Assembly: GCF_964213995.1 (NCBI RefSeq)
Contig: NW_027590123.1
Span: 1,798,001 to 1,862,000 of the forward strand
Direction: 5' to 3'
DNA: 64,000 nt
Source of the DNA: Mustelus asterias
Taxonomy: Eukaryota
Shown: piece by piece, positions 14,836 to 51,645 of the stretch
How positions within the stretch are numbered: position 1 is the first letter of the stretch
Layout of the letters: every line of letters begins with the position of its first letter
Position numbers and translations under genes: made by a program
The notes under the pieces: generated by a model
Told to the model about the DNA's origin: nothing
The model's database searches: none
What the model saw: the letters and a program-made list of their open reading frames with translations, nothing else

Positions 14836-14970
14836 ATGTGGCGGTGCCGGCGTTGGACTGGGGTGAACACAGTAAGAAGTCTCACAACACCAGGCTAAAG
14901 TCCAACAGGTTTATTTGGTAGCAAATACCATAAGCTTTCGGAGCACTGCTCCTTTGTCAGATGGAGTGGA
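14836..14970 (-). mobile_element. Penelope-type short repeat (family A) with minimal hammerhead-ribozyme motif at 14964-14928
   Basis: Minus strand CCAT-CTGACAA-A-GGAGC-AGT-GCTCC-GAAA-GC-TT-ATGG; homologous to 30860, 33235, 39434 and 51440. Confidence 0.7.
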
Positions 14971-15705
14971 AATCTGCTCTCAAACAGTGCAAACAGACAA
15001 AATCAGAAAAAATTCAGTCCTGTCTATCCACAGGACTAACACAGGACTATCCACAGAAACAATTCAGTCTTAACAGTGAGTGTCACCGGATCATAAACAG
15101 AATAACAAAACAAAACACAACGCTCAACATGAAAAGCTGAGCCGCAGTTGGTTTTAACTTGCAACTATGCTAAAAATGCATTTATTGTTAGTTAACTCAC
15201 ACTTACCCTTTTGCTAATATTTCCTTGAATATGTGAATTATTTACCATCATCACTCTTCGTTTTGTGGTCGGTTTGATCAAAGGGTCTATTTGATCGGAG
15301 TATTGTGCTCGCTAAGGGATCAGTTATATAACATGTGCATTTCACAAGCTTGACACAGAACCATTTAAGCAATCCCTGGGAGCAAGGTACAATCAATGTC
15401 CATTCTCATTTTCAATGTTTTTTGACATAATTCGCAACTTTATAATAACCGGACCAGCGACTTTAATCCCACCCCTGTCCCTAACAATAGAACGATATTC
15501 CTAATAAGCTCACTGAATGTAACCCAGCTTGGGATATTTCTGCTCACTGAAAACCATGTATCCATCCACAGGACTAAAAACACGACAGGGGACACACGAA
15601 AGTGAGGTGCGAAGATCCGATCACATTATAGCAGATTAATAAGAGTGTGGATTGGAACGAGAGTTTTCTTGCGTCAACTTACCCTTCTACAGAGCGGCCA
15701 GCGAC

Positions 15706-16130
15706 AATGTGTAAGGCAGCAACTGGTTGTATGGGGGCGGGGAGGGGGGATTTCGGGCAGATAATTGTGAAATGTACACATTTAATCTGTTTTCCAAATC
15801 ATGTTGGAGAGTTTAAAGCACTCCAATATGATTAGTTCAGATTCTAATATACATTTCAGATCAGAGTCATGGAAATTCTGTCACTTAATTACTGTCCTCA
15901 AATGATACGACAGAAGGAGAAGTGTTTTTTTAAAGTTTCACCTATGATACTACATGGAGTGATTTGGTTTTATTCTGGCATTGTCCAATCCCGATAAACT
16001 GCACTCACAGGAAGTTTTACTCATGTCTGCAGACAAGCGGTGAGACAAACAATAGCAACAGCACCATTCAGGCATCCAAACCTCTCTCAATTTCAATGTG
16101 GAGAAATTGGACTCTGCAGAGTTGATCAGA
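15706..16130 (+). pseudogene. Ancient V-segment relic
   Basis: Acceptor TTTCAG at 15859, then DQSHG-NSVT*; later LFWH and NVEKLDSA (FR3-like); paralogous to 29767-30200. Confidence 0.5.
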
Positions 16131-16812
16131 AGAAGGGCTCACGTACGGAGTTCGTGATGAATCATAGGATCATAGAAAAATAATCGTTGCAGGTCAGAAG
16201 GGGGCATTCGGCCCATCGAGTCTGCACCTGCCACAATCTCACGCAGGCCCTATTCCCGTCACCCCACACATTTACTCTGCTAATCCCGCTGACACAGAAG
16301 TCAATTTAGCATGGCTAATCAATCTAACCCGCACATCTTTGCAGCCCCACCCGTGCACTCTGCATTATCTCCGGGAGCTCCTGTCTGCTGGCTTTTCAAT
16401 TTTGTGATTCATTTCTTAAAGTTACAAAGCCAATGCGCAGAGCGGAGAAGCCAATCAAGAATCAATCTCCACACTTGCCCCTACATCAATTCAAATTCAA
16501 ATTCAATCCAATTGACGATCCCCACAAGAGATATGAGCAAGATCCAAGCTGACAAGATAAGGTATTGCACGTGAACTTGGGCTTTATGTGACGCTTAGTC
16601 TTAGCCAAAAACCCGAGAAGATTGCAGCGGTTAGACTCGTGGACAGTTGCAGCCACAATGAGGACCGGCGCTGTCAGCTGCTCAAACATACACCGAGAGA
16701 AACCAAATTAGCATTGTATCAAACTGTCACGCACCTATTTACAGCAGTGGCTGAGAGAACAGGCAGCAGAATATGATCAGGCCGCCAGTTCCATCATCAA
16801 ATCAGCCAACAG

Positions 16813-17121
16813 ATAGAAAACATAGAATCCCTACCGTGCAGAAGGAGACCATTCGGCCCATCGATTCTGCACCGACACCAATCCCACCCTATCCCCGGAA
16901 CTCCATTCATTTACCCTAGCTGCCCTCCTGACGCTACGGGCAGCTTATCATGGCCAATCCACCAAACTCGCACATCGTTGGACTGTGGGAGGAAAGCGGA
17001 GCACCCAGAGGAAAACCACGCAGACACGGGAAGAACGTGTAAACTCCACACAAACAGTGAGCCAGCGCCGGAATTGAACCCGGGTCCTGGCGCTGTGAGG
17101 CAGCAGTGCTAACCACTGTGC
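16813..17121 (-). mobile_element. HE1-like tRNA-derived SINE
   Basis: Minus-strand head GCACAGTGGTTAGCACTGCTGCCTCACAGCGCCAGGACCCGGGTTCAATTCC, body, and CR1-derived tail GGGATTCTATG. Confidence 0.88.
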
Positions 17122-17444
17122 AATCATGCGGCCATGAATAAATAAAATCATGCAGGCTTCCCTCAACCGAACTGAGAAAGTTTTAATAATGTTTCTGCCC
17201 GGTCCGAAACAGGGACGTTTAGCGTGTGATGCGAATGTGATGACCACTACAGAAACTGTTAAAAAGAGAGAGTTTGCGAACTGCCATTAAGTTTACATCG
17301 AGCCAGGCTGCAATCTTCTGATTATAGTCAGACGGGTTATTAGTTGCGCCACTGGCCCACATTGAGCTAGTCATCTCCCTGCTTCTGATCAGATGTCAAT
17401 TCCATAACCTCAGAGCTGGATATTCAGATAAGGTCCGGGAGACC

Positions 17445-18225
17445 TTTTGGTAGGACAAATTTAAATGTGGATTACAGGGTCAAAGGTAGGGTTCTGAAGA
17501 ATGTGGAGGAACAGAGAGATGTTGGGGTTCATATCCATAGATCTCTGAAGGTTGCCACTCAAGTGGATAGAGCCGTGAAGAAGGCCTATAGTGTGTTGGC
17601 GTTCATTAACAGGGGGTTTGAGTTTAAGAGCCGTGGGGTTATGCTGCAACTGTACAGGACCTTGGTGAGACCACATTTGGAATATTGTGTGCAGTTCTGA
17701 TCACCTCACTACAAGAAGGATGTGGAGACACTGGAAAGAGTGCAAAGGAGATTTACCAGGATGCTGCCTGGTTTGGAGGGTAGGTCTTATGAGGAAAGGT
17801 TGAGGGAACTTGGGCTTTTCTCTTTGGAGCGGAGGAGGTTGAGAGGAGACTTGATCGAGGTTTACAAGATGATGAGGGGGATAGATAGAGTGAACGTTCA
17901 AAGACGATTTCCCCGGGTGAATGGAGCGGTAACTAGGGGGCATAACTATAGGATTCATGGTGGGAGATATCGGAAGGATGTCCGAGGTAGGTTTTTTACT
18001 CAGAGAGTGGTTGGGATGTGGAATGGAGTGCCTGCAGGGATAGTGGAGTCAGAAACTTTAGGAACATTTAAAAAGCTATTGGATAGGCACATGGAGTACA
18101 TCGGGATGATAGGGAGGAAATAGCTTGATCTGGGTTTCAGACAAAGCTCGGCACAACATCGTGGGCCGAAGGGCCTGTTCTGTGCTGTACTGTTCTATGT
18201 TGTACTGTTCTATGTTCTATGTTCT
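17445..18225 (+). mobile_element. CR1 LINE 3' fragment, same subfamily as 3659-5537
   Basis: ORFs 17467-17700 and 17722-18123 are nearly identical to 3743-4303; (TTCTATG)n tail. Confidence 0.95.
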
Positions 18226-18324
18226 TGAGAGTTGTTTCTGATCAGTTGTTAATTCCCATGATCTCAGGGCTGGATGTTCCGATCAGCTCCGGGAAAGATG
18301 TTTCTGAACATCAGACACGACCCA

Positions 18325-18810
18325 CTGACGTCACTCGGACTTCACAGTGACGCCACATGCCTGCAGTGTGACGTCACATATGCCCGCTTTCTGACGTCAC
18401 AATACACGATGCTCTGACGTTGGGTGTACAGTGGTGAGCACTGCTGCCTCATAGCGCCAGGGACCCGGATTCAATTCCAGCCTTGGCTCACTGTCTGTGT
18501 GGAGTTTACACATTCTCCCCGTGTCTGCGTGTGTTTCCTTCGGGTGCTCTGGTTATCTCCCACACTCCAAGGATGTGCAGATTAGGTTGATTGGCCCTAG
18601 TGCCAGGGGGATTAGCGGGATAAATATGTGTAGTTACGGGGAGAGGGCTTGAGTGGGGCTGTGGTCGGTGTAGGTTGAATGGGCCGAATCGTCTCCTTCT
18701 GCCCAGTCGGGGTTCTATGATTCTGTGACGTTCAGTGCCGGATGCTCTGACGTCAGAATGCCGGATGTCCTGACTTCACAATACCCGATGTTCTGTCGCA
18801 TGCGCACTCT
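18325..18810 (+). promoter_or_regulatory. Array of ~23-bp repeats each carrying a CRE-like TGACGTCA, upstream of the V at 19007 (split by a SINE)
   Basis: Several perfect TGACGTCA plus variants in the unit GATGCTCTGACGTCACAATGCCG; ends in GCATGCGCA. Confidence 0.65.
18421..18724 (+). mobile_element. HE1-like SINE inserted in the CRE array
   Basis: tRNA-like head, body and TTCTATGATTCT tail; flanked by TGACGTT on both sides. Confidence 0.88.
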
Positions 18811-19006
18811 CCTCCCCCACACTATCAATGCTGAAGCTCCCTCACTGATTCACTTTGTGATCACAAATTCCCGCGACCCGGCTCTCACCGCCACTGTATG
18901 ACTGGTTTGGGGCTCGGTTTGATAGCCAATAGCATTGCTTTCCCAGGAGCTGATCTCAGCCTGGGATCTGCTGACAGCTGTTTCACACAAGTCGATAGAA
19001 TCCAAC

Positions 19007-19530
19007 ATGTTTCTGAGCTTCACGTTGGTGATTGTTTTCCTGGATTTCTTACTGTTCCCTCAATGTAAGTGTGGTCACTATTTCTGACAGGAATATTTCA
19101 CACCTCAGCAATGTTATGTTCTGTTAAATTGTACTCAGCTTTATTTTATTATCTCGAATTGTGAATGCAATTGTACTTTATTGTGCTACATTATAGTACG
19201 ATATATTATTACTGCAAATGTACAATTGCAGGTGCTGCTGGCAGTGAAGAGCTATCACAGTCTCCGGAGTCAGTGATTGTTACCGAGGGAGCCACTGCGT
19301 CGTTGAAATAGCTGAACAGGACCTGCAATGGTACAGACAAAGTCCAGACAGAACCGTGCAGCACCTGGTGAGCGGTACCAGCGATCAGGGCAGGATCACG
19401 GCTCGATACAGTTTCTCAGAGAAACGCAGCGTTCTGAATGTTAGTGAAACTCGACTGACAGACACCGCTACCTATTTCTGTGCGATGGAGGCACACTGTA
19501 GCAAAGACCGTACAGGGCCGTACAAAAACC
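19007..19530 (+). pseudogene. TCR alpha-like V pseudogene with intact 23-RSS (leader 19007-19064; V exon from 19232; RSS 19492-19530)
   Basis: Leader MFLSFTLVIVFLDFLLFPQ; SEELSQSPESVIVTEGATASLK* (stop at Cys1, CDR1 deletion); LQWYRQ..RLTDTATYFCAME; CACACTG + 23 nt + ACAAAAACC. Confidence 0.92.
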
Positions 19531-21306
19531 TGCCACGATCACCCGGAACGTGTATAGCCTGTGTAGAGAGCAACGACTTTAATCACTCTCTGCCTTGGCT
19601 ACGCACCAGTCACCCGATCAGTCAGACCTGTTCCTGATTTGGGGTTACTCTTTAACATCAAAAGAGAAAGCACAAAATACATTTAAATTCGATTATTTTC
19701 CGTGGAAATGGCATCCAGGGAGTAGGTGTTCCATGGTGCTTCCAGATTGAAATCATCGTGCTATTCGGTGAATCAAACTTCGAAGGATCTTTGTCTATTT
19801 CCTGTGATAAATCCCATTCCAGTCTGTGACACATTCTGAGTTGGCTGCAGGGCCGAGTGACACACTCGGCCCTGCAGCCGAGTCTCCCAGAATCAATCGG
19901 CGGTGAAGGCTCGGGAAGGGCAGTCAGTGATTTTAAGGGATAGCCACTCCATATCTGAAAGCTTTCTGTACCTATCTAGACAGAGCATTATTCCGGGTAA
20001 GTTACGGGATATTTAATGAAGCGTGGAGGCCCAGACATTGAAATACCTCCCAAGATCTCTCAGACCGGTTCGCTGTTGATTGGAAGGAACAAAGGCAGCA
20101 ATGCAACTGTTTGATAAATAAACGAACATTGATCCCACTTTCACAGAAAAATGGACAGGATGTCTCGATAAATGTTATTCATTTCATTGATATTTGTTAC
20201 CGTCTGGAGTAGAGCGCCGCAAACTATAAGGGAAGAACATTCAATAGTAAATTTCAAAAAGGCATTGCCAGACCTTCAGAACGGAAAACAACACGTGGAA
20301 TGCGGGGTGAAAAGAGCAATTGGGAAAGACCTTTCATGCAGCCACAGGGAGAGACAATTGTTTCTGATCCATTCGCGCCCGTCCGACACTATTTTTTCTC
20401 AGTCACTTGAGCAGTAAGCAGATGCAGGTTGTCACAGACTGCTGCAGGTTCAACTGTCGCTGTTTCCACTCCGTCACCTGCGACTGCCGCTGAGAACTCC
20501 GCACTTCCATCAGCTTTGAGTCTGCGGTGACCCCGGTCACAGCTTCCGTTTGCTGCGCTCACTCTAACACCATTGTGCTTTTCGAGACATTGCTGCCGCT
20601 GGCGATTCCTGTCATTGGTTAGATCAGAAGTTCAGTGTTTAAGTCTATTTATTAGTGTAGCAAGTAGGCTTATATTAACACTGCAATGAAGTTACTATGA
20701 AAATCCCCTAGTCGCCACACTCCGGCGACTTTTCGGGTACACTGAGGGAGAGTTTAGCATGACTGATTAGAACAAAGAACAAAGAACAATACAGCACAGG
20801 AACAGGCCCTTCGGCCCTCCAAGCCCAATTAGCGACTGATTCAGGAAGTAGTGCGTGGTCCTATCAGATAATACAGTCTTTTTAACGAGGTGAGTCTGTG
20901 TTGAAATTATTATTGAGCATTCCAAGTATTCATAACTACAGCAAACTTTGACACATTTAATGTTTGGTTCCAGGAATTGCTGGCGCAGACTGAATGGCCT
21001 TCGGCCCATCTCAATTAACGGCTCTGGAAGAACATAAAACAGTAATTTTTGGCTACATGTTCTCTACATCTGAGAGCTTTCATTATCGCTGCTCTGAAGT
21101 GGATATTGCAGGTTTACTGTTTGCATTGTGTCTTGGAGATAGGTCTCATGATTTCACAATCTGCTCCTTTGGTGACCTAGACAAGGGCAGAGATAACACT
21201 ATAACCGCAATAAATCGACATGATTTCTTTCGTGAACCCAGGATCAAAGCATTCCCGGAGACAAGGGCAGGAAAGCAAATTTAGTGGGGTTGTAAATGCC
21301 GGCTGA

Positions 21307-22280
21307 GGTTTTTGTGCGGGGATTTAGTTGTAATCTAACGCTGTGCCTCACTGCTCAGTCATAGACTGCCCCGTCCTCCACACGGAGGGCGCTTATAATG
21401 AGGGAACCATTCTGATTAGACTTGTCAGCAGCCGCTAGATATTGTCCTGATGCTTTATCATCCTTCAGTGCTAATACTTTAGTAATAATCCACATTGGTG
21501 GTTGTACTGTTTTCTGCTGATATCACTGCATTTATTCCATATCCTTGTCTGTATATTTGCACCGAATCCCCTTCTGATACGATTATTGCCACCGGTGACT
21601 GAGTTACTGGATCTGCACACAGTCTGCCTATGAAGGTAAAAGAATGCAACATAAACCGAATTGACATAAATTTGTTTGTAAATGTGTGAGTTTCTGGAAT
21701 CTCGACTCTACATATAATATCGATACTTCTGATAGCAAATTATAGTTAATTATATGCAACATTGTTTATGACATATTATTATATACTACATATAATAATA
21801 TATATTTCTAATATATATATGTATATATATATATCTTTCAGTGGCTGGAACGGGGAGGTGTCTGGAGCGATTAAATAAAACTTCCAGTGTAAATATTCCG
21901 CACTTTCAAACGAAATCAGTTCCTTGCCTCCAGTCCGTGGAACTGGAACTGGAAGCTAATCAGGATCTGTGTGTTTGAAAGTCTGGTGATTGAAGTCATT
22001 CACTGGTACCAAAGGAGCTGGAATCTCAGCCCAACTAATTCTCTCTCAGTCCCTGGGGGAAATGTGCCTACTGACAAAGCAGTGTTCAGTGTTGAGACCA
22101 GCGAGACTCGAATGACTTTTCGAAGTTTGATGAATCCATCACCCGAACACCCAACCCGTTGTACTGAGCTCGAAAGAATATAGTGTGAGGTAAAGATACG
22201 AAATAAAGTTGAGCAACTCGTAAACTTACATGTTTAAAGAGCTGCCGCTTTGAGGAATAAGTAAAGAGTAACCGGAGATG
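21307..22280 (-). pseudogene. TCR alpha/delta V pseudogene with intact 23-RSS (V exon 21627-21346; degenerate leader about 22280-22230)
   Basis: CADPVTQSPVAIIVSEGDSVQI..; GQYLAAADKSNQNGSLIISALRVEDGAVYD*AVR; CACAGCG + 23 nt + ACAAAAACC; GTAAGT donor near 22229; CRE/CCAAT-like motifs at 22370-22415. Confidence 0.85.
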
Positions 22281-23482
22281 TGTCTGCAGAGAGCGCGCGG
22301 CGGATTTCACCAGAACGGGTTGAAGCTGAAATTGTTTTATTCAAGAGTTAGAAAGAAGTTGAGTTCCTGTTGATTGGTGCATTGCCGGCAACGTCATCAG
22401 ATGACATCCAATCGGCTTCAAACTCCTTTGTTCTCCAAGTCAGTCAATGATCTCGCAGCTCCTTTATCTCCAATGAATCCTACTGGCGCAGGGCGAAAGG
22501 AACAAAGTGAATTTGTTCATCTCACTGCAGCGAATTGGAATGCAATCAAACTGAATGATGACCGTATAACATTTCCAATCTCTCGGGCGTGGGTAGAGAA
22601 GTGCAACAGCTTTTGGTTTTCCAGTACCTCTTCTGGGTGCTCTAATTTAAATCGCTACTCAAAAACGGTGAGAATTCCCTGCAGTCGATAGCGGCGGCCA
22701 TTGGGTTCTCAGGGATTGGAAGAGACCAGTATCAGAAATAGATAAACAACACATTGTAAATGAACTAAATGGTGGGGGAAAGCGCATTGCCTATTTGATG
22801 GATTTAAGCAGAATGGGGATGTGTGTTCAGCCCACGGACTCAGTGATCATGAGTGATTTGGTAATTAGAAATATTTGTAGGCTATTTATTATAAAAATAA
22901 CAATGTTCAGAGTAGCTTAATAATTAACCAGCAGGGCCACAGGCTTGCCCTGGAACTTGATGTCTGCATTTAAATCTATTTGATTTTAAAAAACTGGGCA
23001 AGCCTCCTTTCACAACACCTTCCGATCCCGAAATCTATAATATTTCGAAGGACAGGGGCAGCAGACACATTGCGATAACATCATCTGCAAGTTCACCTCC
23101 AGGTCACACATCATGCCGACGTGGAAATATATCGCCATTCCTTTAGATTCGCTTGCTGCGAAACTCCTGCAAATCACTATACTAAAAATATCTTTACGAA
23201 TTTGTGCAGCAGACAGAAAATTAGAAATGTGAGGAAGGAGAAATGCAAGAAAGCGAGAAATAAAGATTCCAAAATGCAAAATAAAAAAGATACGAACAAG
23301 ATGTAAATAGGTTCATAAATAAAGGGAAATGCATTTCCTGCCGACTGACTCGCATTCAAATTCGTCTATTTGCAGTGCTGAATTGTTTGAAACACATTTC
23401 TCAAAAGAAGACCACTGGAAATGCCCCATTGATGATCTTGCACTTTATTGGTGATCAGAACAGTGTACAGTTCCCTGACTCA

Positions 23483-23496
23483 CCGTCAGAGGGCGC
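23483..23496 (+). promoter_or_regulatory. CTCF-like motif
   Basis: CCGTCAGAGGGCGC, one mismatch to the core consensus. Confidence 0.5.
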
Positions 23497-23524
23497 TGTG
23501 GTCACATGTTTCCCGCAGTTCCCA

Positions 23525-23830
23525 AACGGATATTATTGAAACAACCTCGTGGAGCTATTACCAGTGGCAGTGACACCCGCAGCCTCATTTCACTGCTCAG
23601 TCTCTGATGTGCCTTACCGGCCCTGTGTTATTTGAGAGGTTGCCGCCGATGTTCACTATTCGGTATTGGTTACAACAGCAATGTGGTGGGCCGGGGATCT
23701 GCATTCCGGCTCCAGCAGAAGATTCCCGAATCTGCGGAGTTACAGACTTATAGAGAATGAAGCGGAACCACAGTTCACTGCTTTTCATCATTAGACCATT
23801 AGTAGTCAGCATCCTTACCCAGTTATAAAT
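23525..23830 (-). pseudogene. Possible very degenerate V relic
   Basis: Minus-strand fragments IFCWSR..PGP..LL, HIRD..EAA..HC, then a CAC..CAATAAT RSS-like trace. Confidence 0.3.
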
Positions 23831-24084
23831 ATCTGTTGTCCTCCTGAGTGCTGTAACTCAAATCTCATTGTTGCGAACTAATGATAACTTATTTGTTACT
23901 CTTCATTTGGACATTGGTGGCAAGACTAGTATTTGAAGTCCATCGTTAATTGACTTTGATCTGAGTGGCATGCTAGGTCATCGTGGAGGGAAGCTAAGAG
24001 TCAACGTGCTTTCAGTGGATCTGGTGTCAGATGTACATCGCTGACTTGATGTGACAGTTCCTGTTTATGGATAACTATCAAGGT

Positions 24085-30824: not shown

Positions 30825-31120
30825 CCGACGTCTCTCAGACTACAGATGACATCACACGTCACAGTAAGAAGTCTTACAACACCAGGTTAAAGTCCAACAG
30901 GTTTATTTAGAATCACGAGGTTTCAGAGCGCCGCTCTTTCATCAGGTGAGTCACAATGCCAGATGATTGGACGTCACAACACATTGCCCTGATCTCACAA
31001 TGCCACCATGCTCTGACGTTACAATACATGTTGCTCTGATGTCACAATAGCAGATGATCTGCCGTCACGATGCCAGATGCGCTGACGTCACAGTGGGATG
31101 AGCTGACACATGCGCACTCT
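30825..31120 (+). promoter_or_regulatory. CRE-like ~23-bp repeat array upstream of the V at 31319
   Basis: Repeated GATGCTCTGA(C/T)GTCACAAT units; homologous to 18325-18810; ends in CATGCGCA. Confidence 0.6.
30860..30951 (-). mobile_element. Penelope-type short repeat (family A) with hammerhead motif
   Basis: Minus strand TCAC-CTGATGA-A-AGAGC-GGC-GCTCT-GAAA-CC-TC-GTGA; flanked by GTCACA. Confidence 0.7.
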
Positions 31121-31318
31121 CACCCCCACACCCCATCATTGCTGAAGCTCCCTCACTGCTCCACTTTGTGATCACAAGTCCAGAAGACCCGGTTCTGACC
31201 GACACGGTATAACTGGTGTTGGGTTCAATTTCATACCCAACTGCGCTGCCTTCCCCAGGAGCGTCTCTCCCCCTGGGATCTGACGACAGCGAGCTTACAC
31301 ACGTCGATAGGATCCGAC

Positions 31319-31877
31319 ATGAAGCTGAGCTTCACTTTCGTGATCATCATCCTGGATTTCTTACTCTTCCCTCAGCGTGAGTGTGATGGCTATTTCTGAC
31401 AGGAATATTTCGCATATTCGCAATGCTATGTTATGTTGAATTGTACTCTGCTTTATTGTATTATATCCTATTGAGTACACAATTTCACATTATTGTGATG
31501 ATTATATTGGGCTCTGCGATAGTATTTTTTAATGACGTTATTGCATGCCTAAGTATTCTTCCCAGATGCCGCTGGCAGTGAAGAGGTATTACAGTCGCCG
31601 GAGTCAATGGTTATTACCGATGGAGACACGACAGTGTTGAACTGCTCAACGGTAGTGGAGCAAAATATCTTGCAATGGTGCAAATAATACCGGGACCTAA
31701 CCGTGCAGCACCTGGCGGGCGGTACCATCGATCAGAACAGGATCGCGGCTTGGTTCATTTTCTCAGAGAAACGTAGCTTTCTGAATGTTAGCCACACTCG
31801 GCTGACAGACACTGCCACTTATTTCTGTGCAGTGAAGGCACAGCATAACAAAGACGATTCAGCACCGTACAAAAATC
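31319..31877 (+). pseudogene. TCR alpha-like V segment with a single in-frame stop (leader 31319-31376; V exon from 31566; RSS 31839-31877)
   Basis: Leader MKLSFTFVIIILDFLLFPQ; SEEVLQSPESMVITDGDTTVLNCSTVVEQNILQWCK*YRD..RLTDTATYFCAVK (TAA at 31685-31687); CACAGCA + 23 nt + ACAAAAATC. Confidence 0.92.
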
Positions 31878-32971: not shown

Positions 32972-33502
32972 ATGAAGAGAATCCCCCGCAAAGACCTGCT
33001 TCCAGTTGGTGCTCTGATACTGATGCTATTTTGTGAGTTTCTTTTTCTAATCAGATGTGGAGATTTAAACAATCTCATAATACCGCGTGCTTTGTAAGTG
33101 ATTTTTTTTTCTTCGTTCAGTGTGAGGATCAGCGCTCCCACCCTGAGCAGGTGGTGTTTCGGGAAGGGAAACGGGTTGAACTGAAGTGCCGGCTCTCCAT
33201 TGAATCTGGCTATTCCGTAGCTTGGTGGAGGCAATTATGGTATTTGCTACCAAATAAACCTGTTGAACTTTAACCTGGTGTTGTGAGACTTCTTACTGAG
33301 GCAAACACTGATAGGTGCTCCGAAATTAATCGCCTCCATTTCCAATGGAAATATGACCGAAGGACGTTACACACTGTCCTTTGACCGAGTAAAGAATTCC
33401 AACGCCAGCCCTATAGATGAGACCGCGGCCCAGGACTCCGGAATATATCTCTGTGCGAGGCAGACACAGTGAGACAAAGACCAGAACCGATGTACAATAT
33501 CT
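32972..33502 (+). pseudogene. V pseudogene with IgH-like hallmarks, disrupted by a 63-bp insert (leader 32972-33032; RSS 33465-33502)
   Basis: Leader MKRIPRKDLLPVGALILMLF; VQC-EDQ..VELKCRLSIESGYSVAWWRQ | TLIGAPKLIASISNGNMTEGRYTLSFDR..QDSGIYLCARQ; CACAGTG + 22 nt + ACAATATCT; no in-frame AG acceptor. Confidence 0.88.
33235..33297 (+). mobile_element. 63-bp Penelope-type (family A) insert with 7-bp target-site duplication GAGGCAA
   Basis: GAGGCAA at 33228-33234 and 33298-33304; removing the insert and one copy restores the V frame. Confidence 0.88.
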
Positions 33503-33949
33503 TATTCCCTGCCCTGTCTCCACTGCCCCGTTAACATTTCCCCAAATCAGGCCCATTAGGCATGCCGGTAATATTAGAAGGATTAGTTTCCCATGTGCAG
33601 CCAAGATGGAGTCGCAATATCCGATAACCGTAAATACAGATGCAGTGTGTCGAAACATTTTCAATAAAATCTCTTGTTTCGTTGTCCGTCACAAAAAATA
33701 AAGAGACAGACAGAAAAATAACTTTTTCTCAGATAACTGGACAGGTAGCTTTGTGAGAGAAAGGTAGCTAAACAAGGACATGGGAAGATGGAAAGAGCGA
33801 TAATAAGTAGACAGATGGGTAAGAGACACAGACAGGCGGACAGATCAATACGTAGACACAAAGATTCGTTAATTCCGTCGATGTACGCAAGTACTCATTT
33901 AACTATCCCGTTACGTATCTTCACGTTAATTTTATTCTTGTTTTGACAG

Positions 33950-38060: not shown

Positions 38061-38224
38061 CTGACACGAGACGTTGGCAATAAGATGATCATCTCTGTAC
38101 CCATTGCTTTAATTCAAAAACTTTCACTAAAGACATCGTCACAATGTGGAATGATGGGAAGCGGACATGGCAGGATTTGAACTTGATTTTGAAAACCTGA
38201 ATCCATCACCTTAATCTCTGGAAC

Positions 38225-38350
38225 CAAAAGAGCAAACGCTGGAAAATCTCAGCAGGTCTGGTAGCATCTGCAAGGAGAGAAAAGAGCTGAAGTTTCGAGT
38301 CCAGATGACTCTTGGTCAAATATTCCAGGATCCGCAGTAATTTGCTTTTG
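38225..38350 (-). mobile_element. Penelope-type short repeat (family B) with degenerate hammerhead motif
   Basis: Minus strand TTGACCA-A-GAGTC-ATCTG-GACTC-GAAAC-TTC-AGCTC followed by CAGATGCT..GACCTGCTGAG. Confidence 0.6.
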
Positions 38351-38701: not shown

Positions 38702-39433
38702 CTGCATGGCAATTGTTATTTACTGGTATTGTTACTGAACTACATGAGAAGCAACTGAGCTGAGAAAGGTCATCAGGAGGCTTGAGCATGCTCCTTCACT
38801 GAATCCGGTAATCCTGAAATGTGTAACAAACATAAATCATCCCCAGTCAGAAACACCATGAGCTGCAGTTAAGGGCCGGCGCCATTTAAACTGTCCTTAA
38901 CCTCGTCTGTTTCCCAATCTCCTGCCAGAAATGAAAATAAAACTTCCTGTTGAATTTGATCAGGGTCTTCACTTCAAAAAGGACGGGACACGAGGAGAAA
39001 TTGAGATTTCTCTGTTCTTGCAGGAAATTTTTGATATTTGTTTTCACAGTTTGGACGAGAGCAATAAATCTTCATTTTCTGACCTGCAATCAAAACAGCA
39101 GTGAAAGTGTCAAACTCTAACCACCAGAAAAGATTCTTACAGCGTGTTTGACAATTTGATGCATCCACACTCTGTCTGTTATTTCATCATCATCCATGAT
39201 TGAATGTGTTTAGACAATGACAACAAATGCTCCACTGCAGTTTTCACGTTTTGTTCCCACGGTGCGAAACTGGACAAAAATGTTTTCAAGTATTGGTCAT
39301 TACAGATTAAGATAATTTTCAAAATGTTACAATTCAGTGTCAGTGTAAACGGTAAAATCTGACCAATTATCATGCAGATTTTACCTGGCTTCACCACCTC
39401 TATGCTCAGCGTTTTTTAACCTATCACTGGTTG

Positions 39434-39602
39434 AAGTCTCACAACCATCAGGTTAAAGTCCAACATTATTTGGAATCACCAGCTTTGTGAGCGCTGCCCC
39501 TTTGAGCTCTTGATTCCAAATAAACCTGCTGGACTTGAAGCTGGTGTTGTTCGACTTCTTAATGTGCCCACCCCAGTCCAACGCCAGCAGCTCCACCTCA
39601 TG
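39434..39602. mobile_element. Family A repeat as an inverted pair with central deletion
   Basis: AAGTCTCACAAC..AGGTTAAAGTCCAACA on the left and its reverse complement on the right. Confidence 0.7.
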
Positions 39603-39883
39603 ACAATCTATCACTGTTCTTCTCTTTCTGTGTTTGTGCCTGACCTGTTGCACATGTGACATTTCCAGCTCTGAAGTAAACTTGTAAACTTCACTCTGCT
39701 GATTCTGCTGATCTGCTTTACATCAGAGAGTAAATCAGATTACTTTTAATCGTTTGCTGAGAGCAATGTACCGTTATTTACTGAGCGGGAATTGAAAGCA
39801 AACATAACCGGGCGGGACTGCACACGAACCATTGGATTGCAAGGGTAACGGGTGAACTGTGTTTTTCAAACTGACGTACCCTA

Positions 39884-41259: not shown

Positions 41260-41519
41260 GTATTTTGCTGCTATTTCGTATTGGGCAATATCCTGGTTTT
41301 GTAAATTTATTTTCCTTGCACACGGCGGGATTGCTTCACATGGGCTTTGGTTTGAGAACTTGAGCACAATCTAAAACCATAGCAGACTCACAAGTAAATC
41401 ATGACATTTTCAATAGGTGACTATGCTTGCGGACATGAATTCAGGGAACTCATGCATTCAGACGATCTCCCACGTTGCCGGACGCTTGGGAGGAAATTTC
41501 CCTTGGGGGGAAATCTCCC

Positions 41520-42845
41520 TTCCAGAGATATCTGAATCATCGACAGCCACAGGTAAGGTCCCTGAAGATTGGAGGGTGGCAAATGTCGTGCTTTTGTTTT
41601 AAAAAGGCTGCAGGGAAAAGCCTGGGAACTATAAGCCGGTGAGCCTCACATCTGGAATGGGTAAGTTATTAGAAGGTAGTCTGAGAGACAGGAGCTACAG
41701 GCATTTAGAGAGGCAAGGGCTGATTAGGGACAGTCAGCATGGTTTTGTGAGTGGAAAACCATGTTTCAAAAATTTGATTGAATTTTTTGAAGGGATAACC
41801 AAGAACGTACATGAGGGCAGTGCAGATAATGTTGTCGACATGGACTTTAGCAAAGCTTTGACAAGGTACCACATGGTAGGTTGTTGCATAAGTTTAAACC
41901 TCATGGGATCCAAGGTGAGGTATTCAAATGGATACAAAATTGGCTTCATGACAGAAGCCAGCGGGTGGTTATAGACGGTTGTTTTTCAAACTGGGGGCTT
42001 GTGACCAGCGGTGTGCCTCAGGGGTTGGTGCTGGTTCCATTGTTATTTGTCATTTATATTAATGATTTGGATGAGAATACAAGGGATTTGGTTAGTAAAT
42101 TTGCAGATGGCACCGAGATTGGTGGCATAGTGGACAGTGAAGAAGGTTATCTCGGATTGCAATGGGACCTTGATTAATTGGGCCAATGGGCTGACGAATG
42201 GCAGATGGAGTTTATTTCAGATAAATGCGATTAGATGCGTTTTGGTAGATCGAGCCAGGACAGGACTTGCGCAGTTAATGGTAGGGCGTTGGTGAGAATT
42301 ATAGAAAAAAGTGATCTCGGGGTACAGTTCATAGCTCCTTGAAAGTGGAGTCACAGGTGGACAGAATGGTGAAGGAGGCATTCAGCATGCTTGGTTTCAT
42401 TGGTCAGAACATTGAATGAAGGAGTTGGTACGTCTCGTTGAAGATGTACAAGACATTTGTAAGGCCTCACTTGGAATACCTTATTATAGAAAGGATATTA
42501 TTAAACTAGAAGGAGTGCGGAAAAGATTTACTTGGATGCTGCCGGAACTTGATAGAGGCTGGATAGACTGGGACTTCTTTCTCTCGAGCGTAGGAGACAG
42601 AGGGGTGACCTTATAGACGTTCTTAAAATAATGAGGGGCATAGATCAGCTGGATAGTCAATATATTTTCCCAAAGGTAGGGGAGTCTAAAACTAGAGGGC
42701 ATAGGTTTAAGGTAAGAGGGGAGAGATGCAAAACGGTCCCGATGATCAATTTTTTTACACAGAAGATGGTGAGTGTCTGGAACAAGTTGCCAGTGGTACC
42801 AGTAGAGGCGGGTACAAGTTTGTACTTTATAAAGTGTTTAGAGTA
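41520..42845 (+). mobile_element. Degenerate CR1 LINE (RT region)
   Basis: PEDWRVANV, DSQHGF, SGVPQG and KFAD motifs with several stops and frameshifts. Confidence 0.9.
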
Positions 42846-43719
42846 AGGATAGGTTAAAATGCTAGAAGTTGGACCGTGCTGAAGCCATCCGATTGAATGC
42901 CTGATTTAGCAGACTATGGTCTTCGAGATTTGAGATTGGACACGCACGTGTGGAAGATACAGTGTGACAAGCATCTGGTAGATACAGTGTAGACCTTATT
43001 TTGCGTGGCAGCTGCCACATAATTTCAGAGCGCAATGTGCCTGATCACATACAGCTTACTGGTTTGGATAACTGTACATTTATCGTGCATATGGACTCGG
43101 AATGATAACCCTGTTTCGTGCTCGAACGTTTCTGTCAGAACTGCTGTGTTCATGTAGCGTTTTCTGTTTCTGTTTCAGATTTTCAGCACCTGCAGTATTT
43201 TAATTTTATTAGGAAAGTGGCGTCGAGTTTTTTGTTTTCATGTATTTACGTGTCCATTCCTCTATTCTCTGTTTGTAAACCCAGAAACGTGGGCGTCGGA
43301 CGGTGCCTCCTGAGCAGAAGACAAAGTGTGAGGGCAGAAGTTAATTCAATTTCAGTGCATCTGCACCATCTAGGGCTACATAATTGTCATGCAGGATATT
43401 GGTATCCCTTCATTAAACTGCTAAATCAATAGCAGGTAATGGCCGGACTCTCTGTCAACGTGGGTGTAGAGTAACCCCGGGGCTCTCGGAGCTTCCTAGA
43501 AAATGCCTGACGTGAGTCAGTTCAAACAATGGATTGGGAATAATTAATGACAGGTTAAACAGCATATGAATTATTATTTCAATTAATGCACATAGACTAA
43601 GAACATTTATTTCTCATGTGGATCGGGGAGGATATCCGTTGGGTCACATAGTCAGGAAGGTCAAAAGTTGATTTTGATCTGAAATTAACGTTGGTTTAGA
43701 GTGAATTGATTAATGAAAC

Positions 43720-43930
43720 AAAAGCAAAAAATTGTGGATGCTGGAATCTGAAACAAAAACAGAAAAATGCCAAAACATTTCAGCAGGTATGTTAGCATCT
43801 GTGAGGAGAGAACAGAGCCAACTTTTCGATTTTCGAGTTGCATGTCCCTTCCTCGGAGACTCGTAGCGTTGGCTGTATTCTGCCCCCACAGATGCTGTCA
43901 GACCTACTGAGATTTTCCAGCATTTTCTGA
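43720..43930. repeat. Inverted pair of family B repeats directly 3' of the GPCR stop codon
   Basis: CAGAAAAATGC..CAGCAGGT..AGCATCTGTG on the left versus CACAGATGCT..ACCTACTGAG..GCATTTTCTG on the right. Confidence 0.75.
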
Positions 43931-46671
43931 TTAATTAAACAATTTGCCAATTAGTGTCAGGGGATACTTCACCCCATTCTTTATCTCATTTCTAAATTGA
44001 CTCTGGGTCCCTGCATAAATAAAGGGATTGATGCAGGAACTCAGAAGCTGAAGCATAGTTCCACTTTCACCCAAAATAAATATTGAGTTACTGGAATCAG
44101 AACCTGAGGAATAAGTAAGATTCGCAAGTCGTACATAGAGAATTGTTACAAAAAGTAATAAGTACAACAGAATGAAACTCCCCGAGATACAAAAGAGTAA
44201 AACAATGGACTTCCTCCGTTTCTTCATCTCTGGGTCACTTTGATTCTCTCCACTGCTCTGGGCCCGGAGTCTCCTGCGGGCTCGATTGGCCGCTAAAATG
44301 TGTCTGACGGTCAGAGCATTGAGCAGTAAGATCAGAATAAATGGGAGACAACGGGTTAAAATGACGAGAATCCAGTCAAATGCCACCCATATTGGTGACG
44401 TATAAAATACAGATTTTCCACTGCAAAGCCAAGGAATACCGTTGAGGATAAACAAAGGCTCATATGCAAAGTACCAAGGGCTGTTTACAACACAACTCAG
44501 AACACAAACAATGCCTATTACCGTCGCTGCCGTTTCCTTGCTGCAGTATTTTGTTTTCAATTTCTGGCAACAAATAGCGATGAATCGATCAAAGGTAAAA
44601 GCGACTGTTGTCCAAACAGAACAATCTCTGACTCCATAAATGATCACAAAGCTGAGACTACAGGCCGGAGTGATGGAGAGGAAGCTGAATGGGAAATAGA
44701 TACGGGCAATCCGGTTTAATATCACAGCTGTAATAATGACCAGGAAATCTGTCACCGCCATAGATATCAAATAGTAAGTGATAAATCCAGAGAGACCACA
44801 TCTTCCACGGGCTAGGACGACAATCACTGCCAAGTTTGCTGTGTTGTAAGCAAAATAAACTGTGAATAAACTGTAGAAAGACAATGAAAGATCAAATGCT
44901 TAAAAGATTGAATGACTAAAAAGCCAATGTTAAGAGAAACCAGAATTGGCAATCCGAGTTGATGACCTTTCTTTTCCACTCGAGAAGAATCCTTCCTAAA
45001 TTGCAACATTTCCCCAATACGGTACTGAACTGTGAGGAAAATTTCCTGGATATTTATCGCGCTACTTGATGACTCAGCTACAAGAAATACAGTCAGTTGG
45101 TATCTTGTTCAACGTGTAGAGAAGAGAGAAAACATGGCCAAGTCATTGTCAAATCCAACGACCACTAACATTAAAACAATTTGGCTGAAATGCAGGATAT
45201 GAAATTGAATGTCCAGGAATGTCAAGTGCCTCATAGGGCGAGAAAAAAAATGGAATATAAAGGCAAAGTACTGCGGATGCTGGAATCTGAAAAAGAAAAA
45301 TAAATGCTGGAGGAACTCAGCAAGCCGGACAGCATCTGTGGAGAGAGAATGGAGTGAATATTTCGAGTCTAGATGACGCTTCATCAGAGTCGGGGAACTT
45401 ATTTCACTCAAAATGTGAGAACGTGGTTGGAATTGAAAATGATCCTGGAATCCACATTGATAATTAATTGAAACAATTGAAAGCAAATGTTTCGCGGTAG
45501 CGGATACAACAAAATCTACCTGCAAAGCTTAAGCCATGATTTAGTTAATAAAACTTCATTGTCTGAGTCATATGGTTGTGGGTTCAAGATCTATTCCAGG
45601 ACTTTTGGACAAATGGAAGTTTGAAGTGTCAGTGATTTCATCTTCTGGCTAAGTACAATAAGTTGAGTCCCTGTCTAAATAAGACACGGAAACAAAATCA
45701 ACACCAACCTCACAAAGGGAGGTTGTTCACGTTGCCCAAAAAACAAATTAAACATGCAAGTCAGGTAAGAGTGTGATCATTCACGAACAGTTTTAAAAAC
45801 ATAACAGAGCTCTTTTAACAGTGAGATAATCTCCCCACAGTCACAGTGGCAAATCACAACATAACTTACTTTAAACGGTTATATTGGTTTCAAAGTGCAG
45901 CCACAGTGAGGGCATCAACAATCAAATGAAATAGCAATTGCAACATGAGTTGGGGACAGTATGTAGGGGAACATGTAAGCTTGAAGTGATGAAGTTGTAC
46001 TGATCAAGGCAAATGGTATATTGTTAAAGAGGAGAAATTATATAGGCAATGTGCAGTCACCATGCCAGTAAGAGAAAGAAAGAACGCATTGCTATGAAAG
46101 TTTCAATTCATAAAAAGTCTCAGATCGTTATTTCTACATGCAAATGTTTCCTTGAAATAATAGACATTTCCAGGATTGCTGCCTCCATGTGATAACGTTG
46201 CCATTATCATTTGGTAGCTTGCTGCTCAGCTCCCACAATATTAGATCTCCTTGGGTTTCCAAGGATTTCAGCTTGTCTTCTCTCTTCTCCACACGTTCAA
46301 TGAAAGCATGCAGACTTATTTCCTGCAATGGCGGAAAATATATACTTGCCATGAGGAGTAATTATTTCAGGGAAAGAGAAAAACGTAGATAGATGAAATG
46401 AAACACTTCAACTGTCAAACTGCAGAAAGTGTAACTCCATTATACTGGAGAAATCACAGCAAGTAAAACGAAGATTTTCAACATAATTGAGAGAAATTAT
46501 CCAAGGATATCGGTACAATAGTTAAGCTTGAGTGTTAAATATGAATGGCAAGAGGAATAAGCAGTGATTCCCATAATGAATAACTAATCAGTAAACCTTA
46601 CCAGGAATTCCGATAGCAGCAAGGGCAGAATAGTAAATGGCAAACAGCAGACCTTTCGGTGATGAGTGCAT
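43931..46671 (-). CDS. GPR139-like: GPR139/GPR142-like class A GPCR, two exons (46671-46602, 44838-43931), 325 aa
   Basis: MHSSPKGLLFAIYYSALAAIGIP-ANLAVIVVL; YLISMAVTD; SVWTTVAFTFDRFIAIC; LNALTVRHI; SSCINPFIY; GT-AG phase-1 intron at the P/AN position; 978 nt in frame. Confidence 0.92.
45260..45392 (-). mobile_element. Family B repeat with hammerhead core, in the GPCR intron (sense strand)
   Basis: Minus strand CTGATGA-A-GCGTC-ATCTA-GACTC-GAAA-TA-TT; stem I is not well paired. Confidence 0.6.
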
Positions 46672-49509
46672 TTCTATCAAAATCTCCAAATGTGTTCTCC
46701 ACTGCACTCAGAGATTGTGACATTTATTCTTGACGTCTGACTCCAGGGAGATAATTAAAACATCTTTTTTTTACATGAATTGCATTATTTCAACAAACAC
46801 ACTGGCGAAGATGCTGTGCATCACGTGTTTAAATTTTGATATTTTTCTCATGGGCGCTGATGCACAGAGAAACACTCAGAATGCATATTATGTTCCCAGT
46901 TAAATTATTCCATCAAAATAATGAGAATTTAAACAGTGGACGGCTTGAATAGTGAAACTGGGCATTGTGCAAAAGCAATGAATGGGGTTAATCTATTAAT
47001 GCTGAGTTACTAAAGTAATGTAAAGTTTAAGGTTTTTTTGTCACAAGTAAGGCTTGCATTAACACTGCAATGAAGTTATGTGAATTATCTGCGCCAATTA
47101 TAAATGAACAGTGATATTCAAATGAAAACACTGACAATTGCTCCCTGCTGTTCAGTGTTCAGTCCATATGATCACGAGGCAGGTTCATCCTGGTGGAAAA
47201 TCTATGAGACGGCGAAATCACTTTAATACATTTGTCTATGCATTCATTGTGGAAATAGACTGATCAGCACACTTGCACACCATTAGCCAGATTCTGCTAG
47301 AGCGTTTAAATTAAATACTGTCTGGTCCATTTCAGCACAGTTGCATTCGTTGTGTACATGTTCAGATAAGCACACTTACGCTCAGAATAGACAGATTCAA
47401 TCTAGCAAGTTTGAGTACAGCAGCAAGAACAGAGAAAATGGGAAAAAAAACTCAGCACTGAGTTCTTCCAGCTTCCTCTAGTCTTGTTTCAGATTCCTGT
47501 ATCCACTATATTTTTCTTATTTTTGGTTGGAACTCGGGTGGGCCAGGTCCACATCAACATGCATGAATTTGTGTAAACATGTCGAACACACTGAAGTCAT
47601 TTTCAGCACTGATCCATCGAACTCCCGCCCAAGGTGGTGATAGTCAGAAAGAACGATTTAGTTCAGCATGGTTAATATCAGAGTAGACCAATCCACTTGA
47701 ACAAACGTGAAATTGCCCAGAATTCTGGACTTCCTCATTTGGATGGGCAGGACAAGTTCATGACAGTACATTCAGTTCAGTTCGGTCCAGCAAAGTTACT
47801 TTCAGAGTATACAGGTTCAGATCAGCATTGCTAGTCACGCAATCTCTGTGCCCCGCCATCAGCCGCCAGGGCTTTTTGAGGGCTCTTGTTGAATTGAATG
47901 AAGACACATCTCTCACCAGACTGTATCACCCGACTGAACGGGCTTCCGTAATGAACAGGATATTTAACTCCACTCGTTTCTTTCAAATGAAAGTGATTGC
48001 TTTGTACAGAGGCAGCGGTTCCAGCTGTGTTTGATTTTTATGGGAAAATGAATCTTTGATGCCCCAGTCCTACCCAGGGTGCTACATTCACCTCTTCACC
48101 CAACATATAGATGGCGGTATCCGTGTCGATTCCTGCTCACTGACTAGAACTTACTTCTTTCCAATTTAAACTCTGCACTTCCGATGGTTTTCATTTGCTC
48201 CATATTGATTATTTCTATTCCTTTATTTTACTTTGATGTGTACATATCTGAGGATAATCTCTTGCCCAATATAGATTATAAACTCATTAACTCAAACAGT
48301 GGTCTCTAGCATAATGTACACCCTGCTTTACTACAATGGCTCCATTCAATTCTTCATAATTTTCCCCATTTATTTTGCAACTGCTCAATTAGTTCAATAA
48401 TACAGATTGGAGGTTTCGGTAATCTGCACCCCTCTGTTGTTGACAGCACAATGGCAGTTAACGTCACCAGAATGCTACTCTCACCTCATTGTCCCTCCCA
48501 GAAACAGGATAGAGTTACACTTTTCCTCACTTTGCAAGCACCAAACCACAATCATTGGATCATCTTCTGCATTCCAGGCAGACCAGTGTGACACCGCAAC
48601 CAAGCTTATCTTACTGTTCTCTTCATTGCCATTTTTCAGCATCCAAGGCATAAACAAACATGAGCTTAAGATGAAGCAGTGATTTCCTGTAATGCCTTTC
48701 CAATGGATATTTTGTTCTTGGATCATGGTATAGTCCACTCTGCACGTTGGAGATGAGGCATTGAAAAAAAGAAACATAGAAAATGGAAGGAGAAGCCGTT
48801 CAGCCCTTCGACTCCGGTCAGTAATTCATTTTGATCATGTTGGCCTCAACTACTCTCTGTGGTAGCGAATTCCACTGATTCACCTGCCTCTAGACAAGAC
48901 ATTTCTCAGGCTCAAATCAACTCAGTCGTAAATGATTTACCCCTCATCCTCAAACTATGACAGTTAGTTCTGTACTCCCCCACCATTGGGAAAATTCTTT
49001 CTGAATCTACCCTGGCTAATCCTGTTAGATTTACTGAATATTTTGCAGTATACCTCGAATCAATCCACAAGTGTGAACCTGAGGTTCTGATCATTTGTCA
49101 CTTTCTCTTGCTATTTGGCTCCAATTTTACTTCTTTGTGTTCGGCATCCTGCAATGATCCATATAAACTCGAAATGAGCTGGAAGAATTACACCTCGTTT
49201 TTGTTTCGTTTAAACATTTTGCGAATGTCTTGACTGAATAAGAAGTTTAAAAAAATAACCATTGGCTCCTTCTCTTTCCTTTACTTCTTTTTATCTCCTT
49301 TGATTGCTTTTTGATATATGTTGGTGACAATTCCGGGATTAATATTGATATATTACCAGGCATCTGTGTTGCATCTTCATTGTTCCAGTCTCACATTATT
49401 TTGTTTTTCACCATCACCACTTCAGACATGTATTTTTTCCAGCTATCTAATTAATCACAAACATACGCTTCTGTACTTGCAGCACTTCAATAAAACACCA
49501 CTCCTCCAC

Positions 49510-51400
49510 GCCACCCTACACACAAAAACAAAGATAAACACACACAAATGAACACATGGGCGCACAGACAGGCACACACACACATACGCACACACATGCA
49601 CCTGCGCACACACGCACACATGCATAAAACATAGAACATAGAACATTACAGCGCAGTACAGGCCCTTTGGCCCTCGATGTTGCGCCGACCAGTGGAACCA
49701 ATCTAAAGCCCTCTAATCTACACTATTCCAATATCATCCATATGTTTATCCAATAACCATTTGAATGCTCTGAATGTTGACGAGTCCACTACTGCTGCAG
49801 GCAGGGCATTCCACGCCCTTACTACTCTCTGAGTAAAGAACCTACCTCTGACATCTGTCCTATATCTCTCACCACTCAATTTAAAGCTATGTCCCCTCGT
49901 GCTAGCCATCACCATCCGAGGAAAAAGGCTTTCACTATCCACCCTATCTAATCCTCTGATCATCTTGTATGCCTCTATTAAGTCACCTCTTAACCTTCTT
50001 CTCTCGAACGAAAACAACTTCAAGCCCCTCAGCCTTTCCTCATACGATTTTCCCACCATACCAGGCAACATCCTGGTAAATCTCCTCTGCACCCTTTCCA
50101 ACACTTCCACATCTTTCCTATAATATGGCGACCAGAACTGTACGCAATACTCCAAATGCGGCCGCACCAGAGTTTTGTACAGTTGCAGCATGACCTCCTG
50201 GCTCCGAAACTCAATCCCTCTACCAATAAAAGCTAACACACCGTACGCCTTCTTAACAACCCTATCAACCTGGGTGCCAACTTTCAGGGATCTATGCACA
50301 TGGACACCCAGATCCCTCTGTTCATCGACACTACCAAGTATCTTACCATTAGCCCAGTACTCTGTATTCCTGTTACTCCTTCCAAAGTGAATCACCTCAC
50401 ACTTTTCCGCATTAAACTCCATTTGCCACCTCTCAGCCCAGCTCTGCAGCTTACCTATGTCCCTCTGTAACCTGCCACTTCCCTCCGCACTGTCTGCAAC
50501 TCCACCGACTTTAGTGTCATCCACAAATTTACTAATCCATCCTGCCACGCCCTCATCCAGGTCATTAATAAAAATGACAAACAGCAGTGGCCCCAAAACA
50601 GATCCTTGCGGTACACCACTAGTAACTGAACTCCAGGATGAATGTTTCCCATCAACCACCACCCTCTGTTTTGTTACAGCTAGCCAATTCCTGATCCAAA
50701 CCACTAAATCACCCTCAATCCTATGTGTCCGTATTTTCTGCAAAAGCTTACCATGAGGAACCTGATCAAACGCTTTGCTGAAATCCATATACACCACATC
50801 AACTGCTTTACCCTCATCCACCTCTTTGGTCACCTTCTCAAAGAACTCAATAAGGTTTGTGAGGCACGGCCTATCCTTCACAAAGCAATGCTGACTATCC
50901 CACACACACACACACACACACAAAATACACATTAGCAAGGACAAACATACACATAAGCACATGCAGACGCCCACATAAACACAGGCACCTCTAAATACAC
51001 ACAAACACGTTCATGCACACAACAACACACGCACCCATGCATTGATAATGATACAAACACAGCTAAAGACACACAGAGGAACACACACACACATGACTTT
51101 GCACACAAATGCACAAGCAATCACATGGGCACACACGTAAAGACACACACACAAACACACATATACACCAACAAATAAACCCACACAAATACACGGATTC
51201 ATTAACGCACACGCAACCACACATAATCAAACATTAAACAAACAAAAACACACATACACTCGCAAGAAAAAAACACATAGAAACACACACAAAACACATG
51301 CACGGCAAAACGCACGCATACACATATACACGTTCACAAATATATGCAGAAAAATAAGCACACGTACACACATAAATTTACACACAACCATGCACTCAGA
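49510..51400 (+). repeat. Degenerate (CA)n-rich tract split by a CR1 insertion
   Basis: CA-rich sequence at 49510-49625 and 50901-51400. Confidence 0.85.
49626..50900 (-). mobile_element. Young 5'-truncated CR1 LINE with open RT frame
   Basis: ORF 49718-51004 from DSQH onward is uninterrupted CR1 ORF2; (TTCTATG)n tail. Confidence 0.95.
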
Positions 51401-51439
51401 CACTACGCTTTCTTAAATACTGTCCCATTACCATCGTAC

Positions 51440-51645
51440 AAAGTCACAAAACACAAGGTTAAAATCCAGCAGGTTTATCTGAAAAATCACGAGCTTTCGA
51501 AGCGCTGCTCCTTCATCAGTTGAGTGATGAAGGAGCAGCGCTCCAAAAGCACTTGATTCCAGGTAAACCTGTTGGACTTTAACCTGGTGTTGTGAGACTT
51601 CTTACTGTGCGAACCCGAGTCCAATGCAAGCATCTCCACATCATA
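51440..51645. mobile_element. Family A palindromic element with two inverted hammerhead motifs
   Basis: GCTTTCGAAGCGCTGCTCCTTCATCA-GTTGAG-TGATGAAGGAGCAGCGCTCCAAAAGC; the minus copy keeps CTGATGA, GAAA and GCTC. Confidence 0.75.

Follow-up and report, generated by a model that had tools for sequence, protein, structure and literature searches.

A dispersed short repeat, here called family A, carries minimal hammerhead ribozymes in the 64,000 nucleotide (nt) stretch of Mustelus asterias DNA analysed here (contig NW_027590123.1, positions 1,798,001 to 1,862,000; hereafter the window). We propose that family A is very probably the 3'-terminal piece of a pseudo-long terminal repeat (pseudo-LTR) belonging to a very high-copy, endonuclease-bearing Penelope-like retroelement (PLE). 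The assignment to PLEs rests on the type of the ribozyme and on the anatomy of the insertions. Judged by their letters, the arms found in the window are decayed passengers and are probably inert.

Family A occupies exactly five loci in the window. All five had been reported by the initial annotation of this DNA, and all are present and match one another by blastn (E 4e-27 to 6e-6). Two loci, those at 39.4 kb and 51.4 kb, are made up of a pair of inverted arms in the blastn alignments, which brings the number of arms to seven. All seven are shorter than 180 nt and are 70-96% identical over a shared downstream part of 50 columns. Read in the sense direction, the unit is composed of the hammerhead, a short spacer, the motif AAAUAAA, a conserved body of ~45 nt and an optional tail. 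Copies 1 and 3 belong to a first subfamily (A1) and copies 2, 4 and 5 to a second (A2).

Copy 1 (14835-15000, minus strand) comprises the hammerhead, the downstream body and the tail, and has a ragged 5' boundary at ~14995-15003. Its minimal hammerhead lies at 14928-14964, with a predicted cut between 14932 and 14931 according to the descriptor match described below. The optional 3' extension, or PLE tail, spans 14835-14868 and measures 34 nt, or ~40 nt if the ATGACT seen in other copies is counted. Copy 2 (30860-30951, minus strand) is a short form without a tail that adjoins a 23-nt tandem tract and has its hammerhead at 30913-30949. Copy 3 (33235-33297, plus strand) is a 5'-truncated piece of 63 nt with no hammerhead core, whose 5' end lies 2 nt upstream of the predicted cut. 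The left arm of copy 4 (4L; 39433-39509, minus strand) is decayed, truncated inside the core and tailless, and the right arm (4R; 39504-39606, plus strand) begins at the AGCT palindrome and has the tail followed by ATGAC. In copy 5, the left arm (5L; 51441-51526, minus strand; hammerhead at 51487-51523) stands head-to-head with a tailed right arm (5R; 51527-51645, plus strand).

A descriptor scan of both strands of the window, in which one core and one stem mismatch were allowed, returned three matches. All three are family A arms on the minus strand with type I minimal hammerhead topology, with C3 at 14960, 30945 and 51519 and mismatch classes (core, stem) of (1,0), (0,0) and (0,1), respectively. 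These classes were absent from 12 simulated 64-kb windows, which contained only the looser (1,1) class at about one match per window. The initial annotation had stated that three copies show the full pattern; the three folds exist, but none is complete. The 14.9 kb copy has the stem I (CCAU/AUGG), stem II (GGAGC/GCUCC) and AGCU palindrome ascribed to it, but reads CUGACAA instead of CUGANGA, as an A replaces G8 at 14955. The 30.9 kb copy likewise has its stem I (UCAC/GUGA), its stem II (AGAGC/GCUCU) and intact core letters, but its 3' side reads GAAA-CC-UC, its 10.1-11.1 pair is A-U and its stem III remnant is the non-palindromic ACCU. In the left arm at 51.5 kb both core letters and palindrome are intact, and the first pair of stem I is an A.G mismatch. 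Each fold therefore bears at least one damaging change (G8 to A, loss of the palindrome, the broken stem I pair), as had been claimed, and the reduction of stem III to the palindrome AGCU holds for the 14.9 kb and 51.5 kb left arms but not for the 30.9 kb copy.

Across the family in the window, the core CUGANGA, GAAA and UH is found at hammerhead spacing in two of the seven arms (copy 2 and 5L). 5R has lost C3 and carries an A in place of G12, and both copy 4 arms are truncated or decayed. An extra A follows A9 in all five arms that could be aligned; their 10.1-11.1 pair is G-C in three cases, A-U in one and unpaired in one. The palindrome AGCU is present in copies 1, 4L, 4R and 5L and gone in copies 2 and 5R.

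The hammerhead shape might arise by chance in a repeat that contains a hairpin, for example the end of a miniature inverted-repeat transposable element (MITE) or a short interspersed nuclear element (SINE). Copies 4 and 5 do resemble long palindromes, no arm is perfect, and the Rfam hammerhead families matched neither the window nor the two best arms at E up to 5-10. We give the absence of an Rfam match no weight, as it means only that no curated model passed its threshold. A chance origin is scarcely credible and in our view largely refuted: the observed match quality was reached 0 times in the 12 simulated windows, the majority of the family shows every core letter, exactly spaced, together with the palindrome, and a second, unrelated repeat of the window has the same CUGAUGA-A-stem-GAAA layout.

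The family-wide majority comes from contigs of four runs among 23 listed runs with copy 5, one run per organism, which were aligned on copy 1 at 80% likeness. The aligned contigs number 41,701, 26,509, 73,944 and 412, figures that count contigs and not copies. They show that family A is a very abundant repeat common to several species, and the family is genome-wide. The earlier notion of activity in this particular locus is accordingly half right: copies have landed here, as the target-site duplications described below indicate, but the family is not a local one.

The A at G8 of copy 1 is decay, given that the canonical G8 letter makes up 90%, 96% and 62% of the depth in three of the four runs, the fourth being without depth at this position. 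G12 is altered in 6%, 2% and 16% of the depth, in keeping with the decay of a CpG. The majority letters comprise an intact core, an extra base between 9 and 10.1, the pair G10.1-C11.1 and the AGCU palindrome, which occurs in both subfamilies among the aligned contigs. The consensus of the loose ends from three runs belongs to the second subfamily, in which the spacer is shorter, the core is intact and stem I reads UCAC/GUGA. A consensus without CUGANGA, GAAA and UH had been named as evidence against the ribozyme; the majority of the family keeps this core intact. Its features are those that Cervera and de la Pena (2014, PMC4209133) give for PLEs, namely an extra base 9/10.1, G10.1-C11.1 and a palindromic 15.2-16.2, alongside consensus families with candidate compensatory changes, and the Penelope-type minimal hammerhead of the initial annotation is supported.

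The putative compensatory change in stem I (CCAU/AUGG versus UCAC/GUGA) is a real difference between the two subfamilies, with two of the four pairs altered on both sides. Its covariation score was reached by 10 of 500 shuffles, with only five related arms in the alignment. The second compensatory pair that had been claimed, in stem II, does not survive, as A-U is found in one of the five aligned arms and is private to copy 2. At positions 14952 and 14940 (10.1 and 11.1) no other letter reaches 8% in the four runs, the fourth of which has almost no depth there. We considered the A10.1-U11.1 pair as a sign of selection and rejected it, since it is one copy with a C-to-U change inside a CpG.

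The anatomy of the insertions provides the second part of the argument. The 3' loose ends form two clusters, at 14835 and at 14869-14872, which lie 34-40 nt apart and recur in all four runs. On the 5' side, the contig depth fades gradually between 14969 and 15012, as opposed to the sharp stop at 14835. Beyond the long 3' end, the sense-strand letters are ATGACT in the consensus of the loose ends and ATGAC in 4R. The tail is found in three of the seven arms (1, 4R and 5R) and is missing from 2, 3, 4L and 5L. The 5' ends are different in every arm and range from ~65-70 nt to 2 nt upstream of the cut site. Copies 4 and 5, two of the five loci, are inverted head-to-head pairs in which one arm bears the tail.

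Clear target-site duplications flank two of the five loci. Copy 3 lies between two exact 7-bp copies of GAGGCAA (33228-33234 and 33298-33304, plus strand), and copy 4 between 9-bp copies of CTATCACTG (left 39421-39429, right 39608-39616, plus strand). With random flanks from the window (3000 trials), matches of 7 bp arose by chance at a rate of 0.4-1.8% and those of 9 bp at 0.03-0.2%.

This raises the question whether family A is a fragment of an ordinary PLE or a dedicated short non-autonomous derivative, akin to a SINE, whose unit of 100-200 nt is transcribed and then copied by PLE proteins in trans. The lengths of the seven arms, all below 180 nt with no PLE open reading frame (ORF) adjoining, would agree with such a derivative, as would the short stretch carried by tens of thousands of contigs. 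In addition, mobilisation in rotifers requires no more in cis than the sequences of the pseudo-LTR (PMC3846280). A dedicated unit is nonetheless unlikely: the 5' end is different in each arm, the upstream depth fades with no single boundary, and PLE insertions are usually heavily 5'-truncated. The ‘non-autonomous family’ of the initial annotation is therefore not favoured, because ragged 5' ends plus a tail fit a 5'-truncated ordinary PLE at least as well.

The initial annotation had also left room for a retrozyme. In that case the copies would be what is left of a non-LTR retrozyme, whose tandem hammerhead repeats are expressed as circular RNA. Family A does place a type I hammerhead within a short non-coding repeat, retrozymes are reported from one chondrichthyan genome (bioRxiv 10.64898/2026.07.22.740005), and a few single contigs have joints that go back 63-100 nt. 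Yet none of the 47 tandem rows of the window is a head-to-tail array of the unit, the copies are dispersed or inverted, and the motif is of the minimal PLE type, as opposed to the canonical type I hammerheads in tandem units of 150-450 bp described for retrozymes (PMC7229834). We consider a retrozyme origin highly improbable and have dropped this part of the earlier proposal.

Truncated pieces of PLEs, as which we read the family A copies, have precedent. The minimal hammerheads in the pseudo-LTRs of metazoan PLEs show no activity as monomers and weak activity as dimers; most of their genomic copies are solo and probably represent truncated PLEs (PMC4209133). Family A shares with them the type I topology, the 4-bp helix I, the extra base 9/10.1, the pair G10.1-C11.1, the palindromic 15.2-16.2, consensus families with thousands of solo copies in each genome and the occurrence of some pairs close together on opposite strands (PMC4209133). 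Helix II differs, with 5 bp and a 3-nt loop in family A and a longer helix of 7-8 bp in Schistosoma, and no ORF was linked to family A here (PMC4209133).

The Poseidon element PAc of the green anole (Frangieh et al. 2024, PMC11167929) likewise has a hammerhead in its pseudo-LTR and two discrete 3' ends that define a tail of 30-40 bp. In PAc, the ORF begins at stem II and the start sites of reverse transcription lie 111-118 nt inside the ORF (PMC11167929), whereas the first conserved ATG seen in family A sits where the tail ends, ~100 nt past the cut site. We infer that this ATG may be the start of the ORF. The anole ribozyme cut only together with the protein of the element and was dispensable for insertion in vitro; cleavage in vivo was sought in RNA reads and was not found (PMC11167929).

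Endonuclease-bearing Penelope elements of the rotifer Adineta vaga (Arkhipova et al. 2013, PMC3846280) resemble family A in their head-to-head inverted pseudo-LTRs with the tail on one arm, their target-site duplications of 8-10 bp and their solo pseudo-LTRs. Their ORF lies between the repeats, while the inverted arms of family A meet directly (PMC3846280). Inverted head-to-head arms with the tail on one side and duplications of 8-10 bp are also described in PMC8557442. Non-LTR retrozymes share the short non-coding repeat and the type I hammerhead with family A and are thought to depend on PLE proteins, but form tandem units with mostly canonical hammerheads, in contrast to the solo or inverted, minimal form seen here (PMC7229834; bioRxiv 10.64898/2026.07.22.740005). 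PLEs were found in 23 of the 23 vertebrates of one survey, among them a chimaera (PMC4350176).

Several observations weigh against the assignment to a PLE. The ORF list and a motif scan of the window gave no linked ORF for a reverse transcriptase (RT) or GIY-YIG endonuclease. DNA-pattern scans of prokaryote, viral and metagenome collections, which hold little or no animal DNA, returned 0 loci, and peptide searches with a short frame across the tail gave 22 candidates plus one, none with E of 10 or below. When two copies were cofolded with ViennaRNA, which does not model the catalytic core, other intermolecular pairings were favoured over the palindrome dimer. The covariation amounts to five arms in two subfamilies, or about two independent events, and relatedness alone can beat the shuffles, as the covariation tool itself warns. 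Finally, the target-site duplications of copies 1, 2 and 5 are uncertain and were left uncounted: the flank match of copy 1 is imperfect, the possible 6-bp duplication of copy 2 (GTCACA) lies inside the tandem tract, and copy 5 has an 8-bp flank match ~19 nt outside its aligned left end.

We propose the following route for the origin of the copies. A master element located elsewhere in the genome would be transcribed, and its RT/GIY-YIG protein would nick the DNA and prime reverse transcription at one of two sites on the RNA, so that some copies would have the 34-40 nt tail and others would lack it. Synthesis would usually end after 60-170 nt, so that only the pseudo-LTR end is inserted, and the second strand would sometimes be made head-to-head, giving rise to inverted pairs. 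On the RNA of the master, two minimal hammerheads may pair their AGCU palindromes into an intermolecular stem III of 4 bp. Cleavage of this dimer after position 17 would be slow and probably assisted by a protein. The dimer step is modelled on the dimers of PMC4209133 and on the protein-dependent cutting in the anole. The copies in the window cannot form such a dimer in cis, because the arms are kilobases apart or on opposite strands. Cores on the same strand are separated by at least 16 kb, and the inverted pairs place one arm in antisense and fold as long hairpins that bury the core (-97 and -108 kcal/mol for copy 5).

A further scenario is that some copies were reverse-transcribed from RNA already cut by the ribozyme. 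Copy 3, with an exact target-site duplication around it and a start 2 nt away from the predicted cut, would be such a case. One start this close to the cut among seven arms has a chance expectation of 30-40%, the reading draws on this single copy, and none of the loose-end rows listed has a peak at 14931-14932. We therefore hold the scenario to be decidedly improbable. If it were true, and the 5' junctions of the tens of thousands of genomic copies piled up at position 17/1.1, the genome would constitute a fossil record of cleavage by PLE minimal hammerheads in vivo.

The class of minimal PLE hammerheads has been in print since 2014 (PMC4209133), and family A adds one lineage and one family to it. 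The text parts of PMC4209133 and the two supplementary files searched make no mention of cartilaginous fishes. Our literature search, which did not extend to Repbase and Dfam, found no paper that prints the family A sequence, and the family may already be catalogued in a repeat library. As found in the window, the copies are of small import, with the local hammerheads broken and the class known. The abundance of the family in at least four organisms, on the other hand, makes it a good data set on the cutting of PLE hammerheads in vivo, and also a useful one for the origin of the tail and the inverted forms.

The one visible effect of the copies in the window is the break of an antigen-receptor variable (V) gene segment. 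Copy 3 inserted into a V exon (33124-33463, plus strand) just past its W-W-R-Q motif and, together with the duplication, adds 70 nt, which shifts the frame. Both halves of the exon around the copy are stop-free and give weak matches (E 0.086 and 0.22) to successive parts of the V-set profile, at positions 3-36 and 56-91, respectively. The recombination signal of this segment (33124-33510) has a perfect heptamer, CACAGTG at 33465, and an imperfect nonamer. The split V segment is a pseudogene, and the 63 nt of copy 3 would represent a clean case of a PLE fragment that knocks out an antigen-receptor V segment.

The window contains several V exons of immunoglobulin type with recombination signals, four of which were found by a strict signal scan. 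One V exon matches V-set with E 6.5e-15 in a profile search. A search of the PDB with a V exon returned V domains of antibodies and of the T-cell receptor alpha chain, which shows only that this is an immunoglobulin or T-cell receptor V domain; a homologue search with one V exon found none. Judging by its repeat families, we take the window to belong to a cartilaginous fish and to represent a T-cell receptor region.

Pieces of CR1-type long interspersed nuclear elements (LINEs) with RT and APE endonuclease domains (Pfam) are numerous across the window. One of these, at 11917-14517 (plus strand), is an ORF2 stretch of 866 amino acids without stops that has both domains and represents a young copy; many shorter CR1-type copies are spread over the window. 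Directly after this LINE, at 14602-14772, lies a V exon reduced to its last third plus the recombination signal, and copy 1 of family A sits ~60 nt beyond this signal. The 23-nt tandem tract occurs both at 18719-18795 and at 30950-31092, and 18938-19185 matches 31250-31497 at 79%, which points to a duplicated V-gene cassette. Of these two tract sites, only one has copy 2 beside it.

Amid the V segments, two related intronless frames of rhodopsin-family G protein-coupled receptors lie inverted to each other at 43931-44899 (minus strand) and 61450-62457 (plus strand), the first of which was confirmed as 7tm_1 by Pfam. A frame of 93 amino acids at 48310-48588 (plus strand), which we had suspected to be a decayed piece of a PLE ORF, was dropped: Pfam gave no relevant match, and the sole match in a representative protein search was an unrelated MucBP-repeat protein. 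A 66-nt minisatellite forms arrays of three and four copies at 1273-1482 and 3129-3386. Finally, the second, unrelated repeat family occupies 45259-45395 (minus strand), 38234-38349 and 43720-43925, two of these loci being inverted pairs. At 45387 (minus strand) its CUGAUGA-A-stem-GAAA motif is followed by a decayed 3' part, and this family is probably the end of another PLE family.

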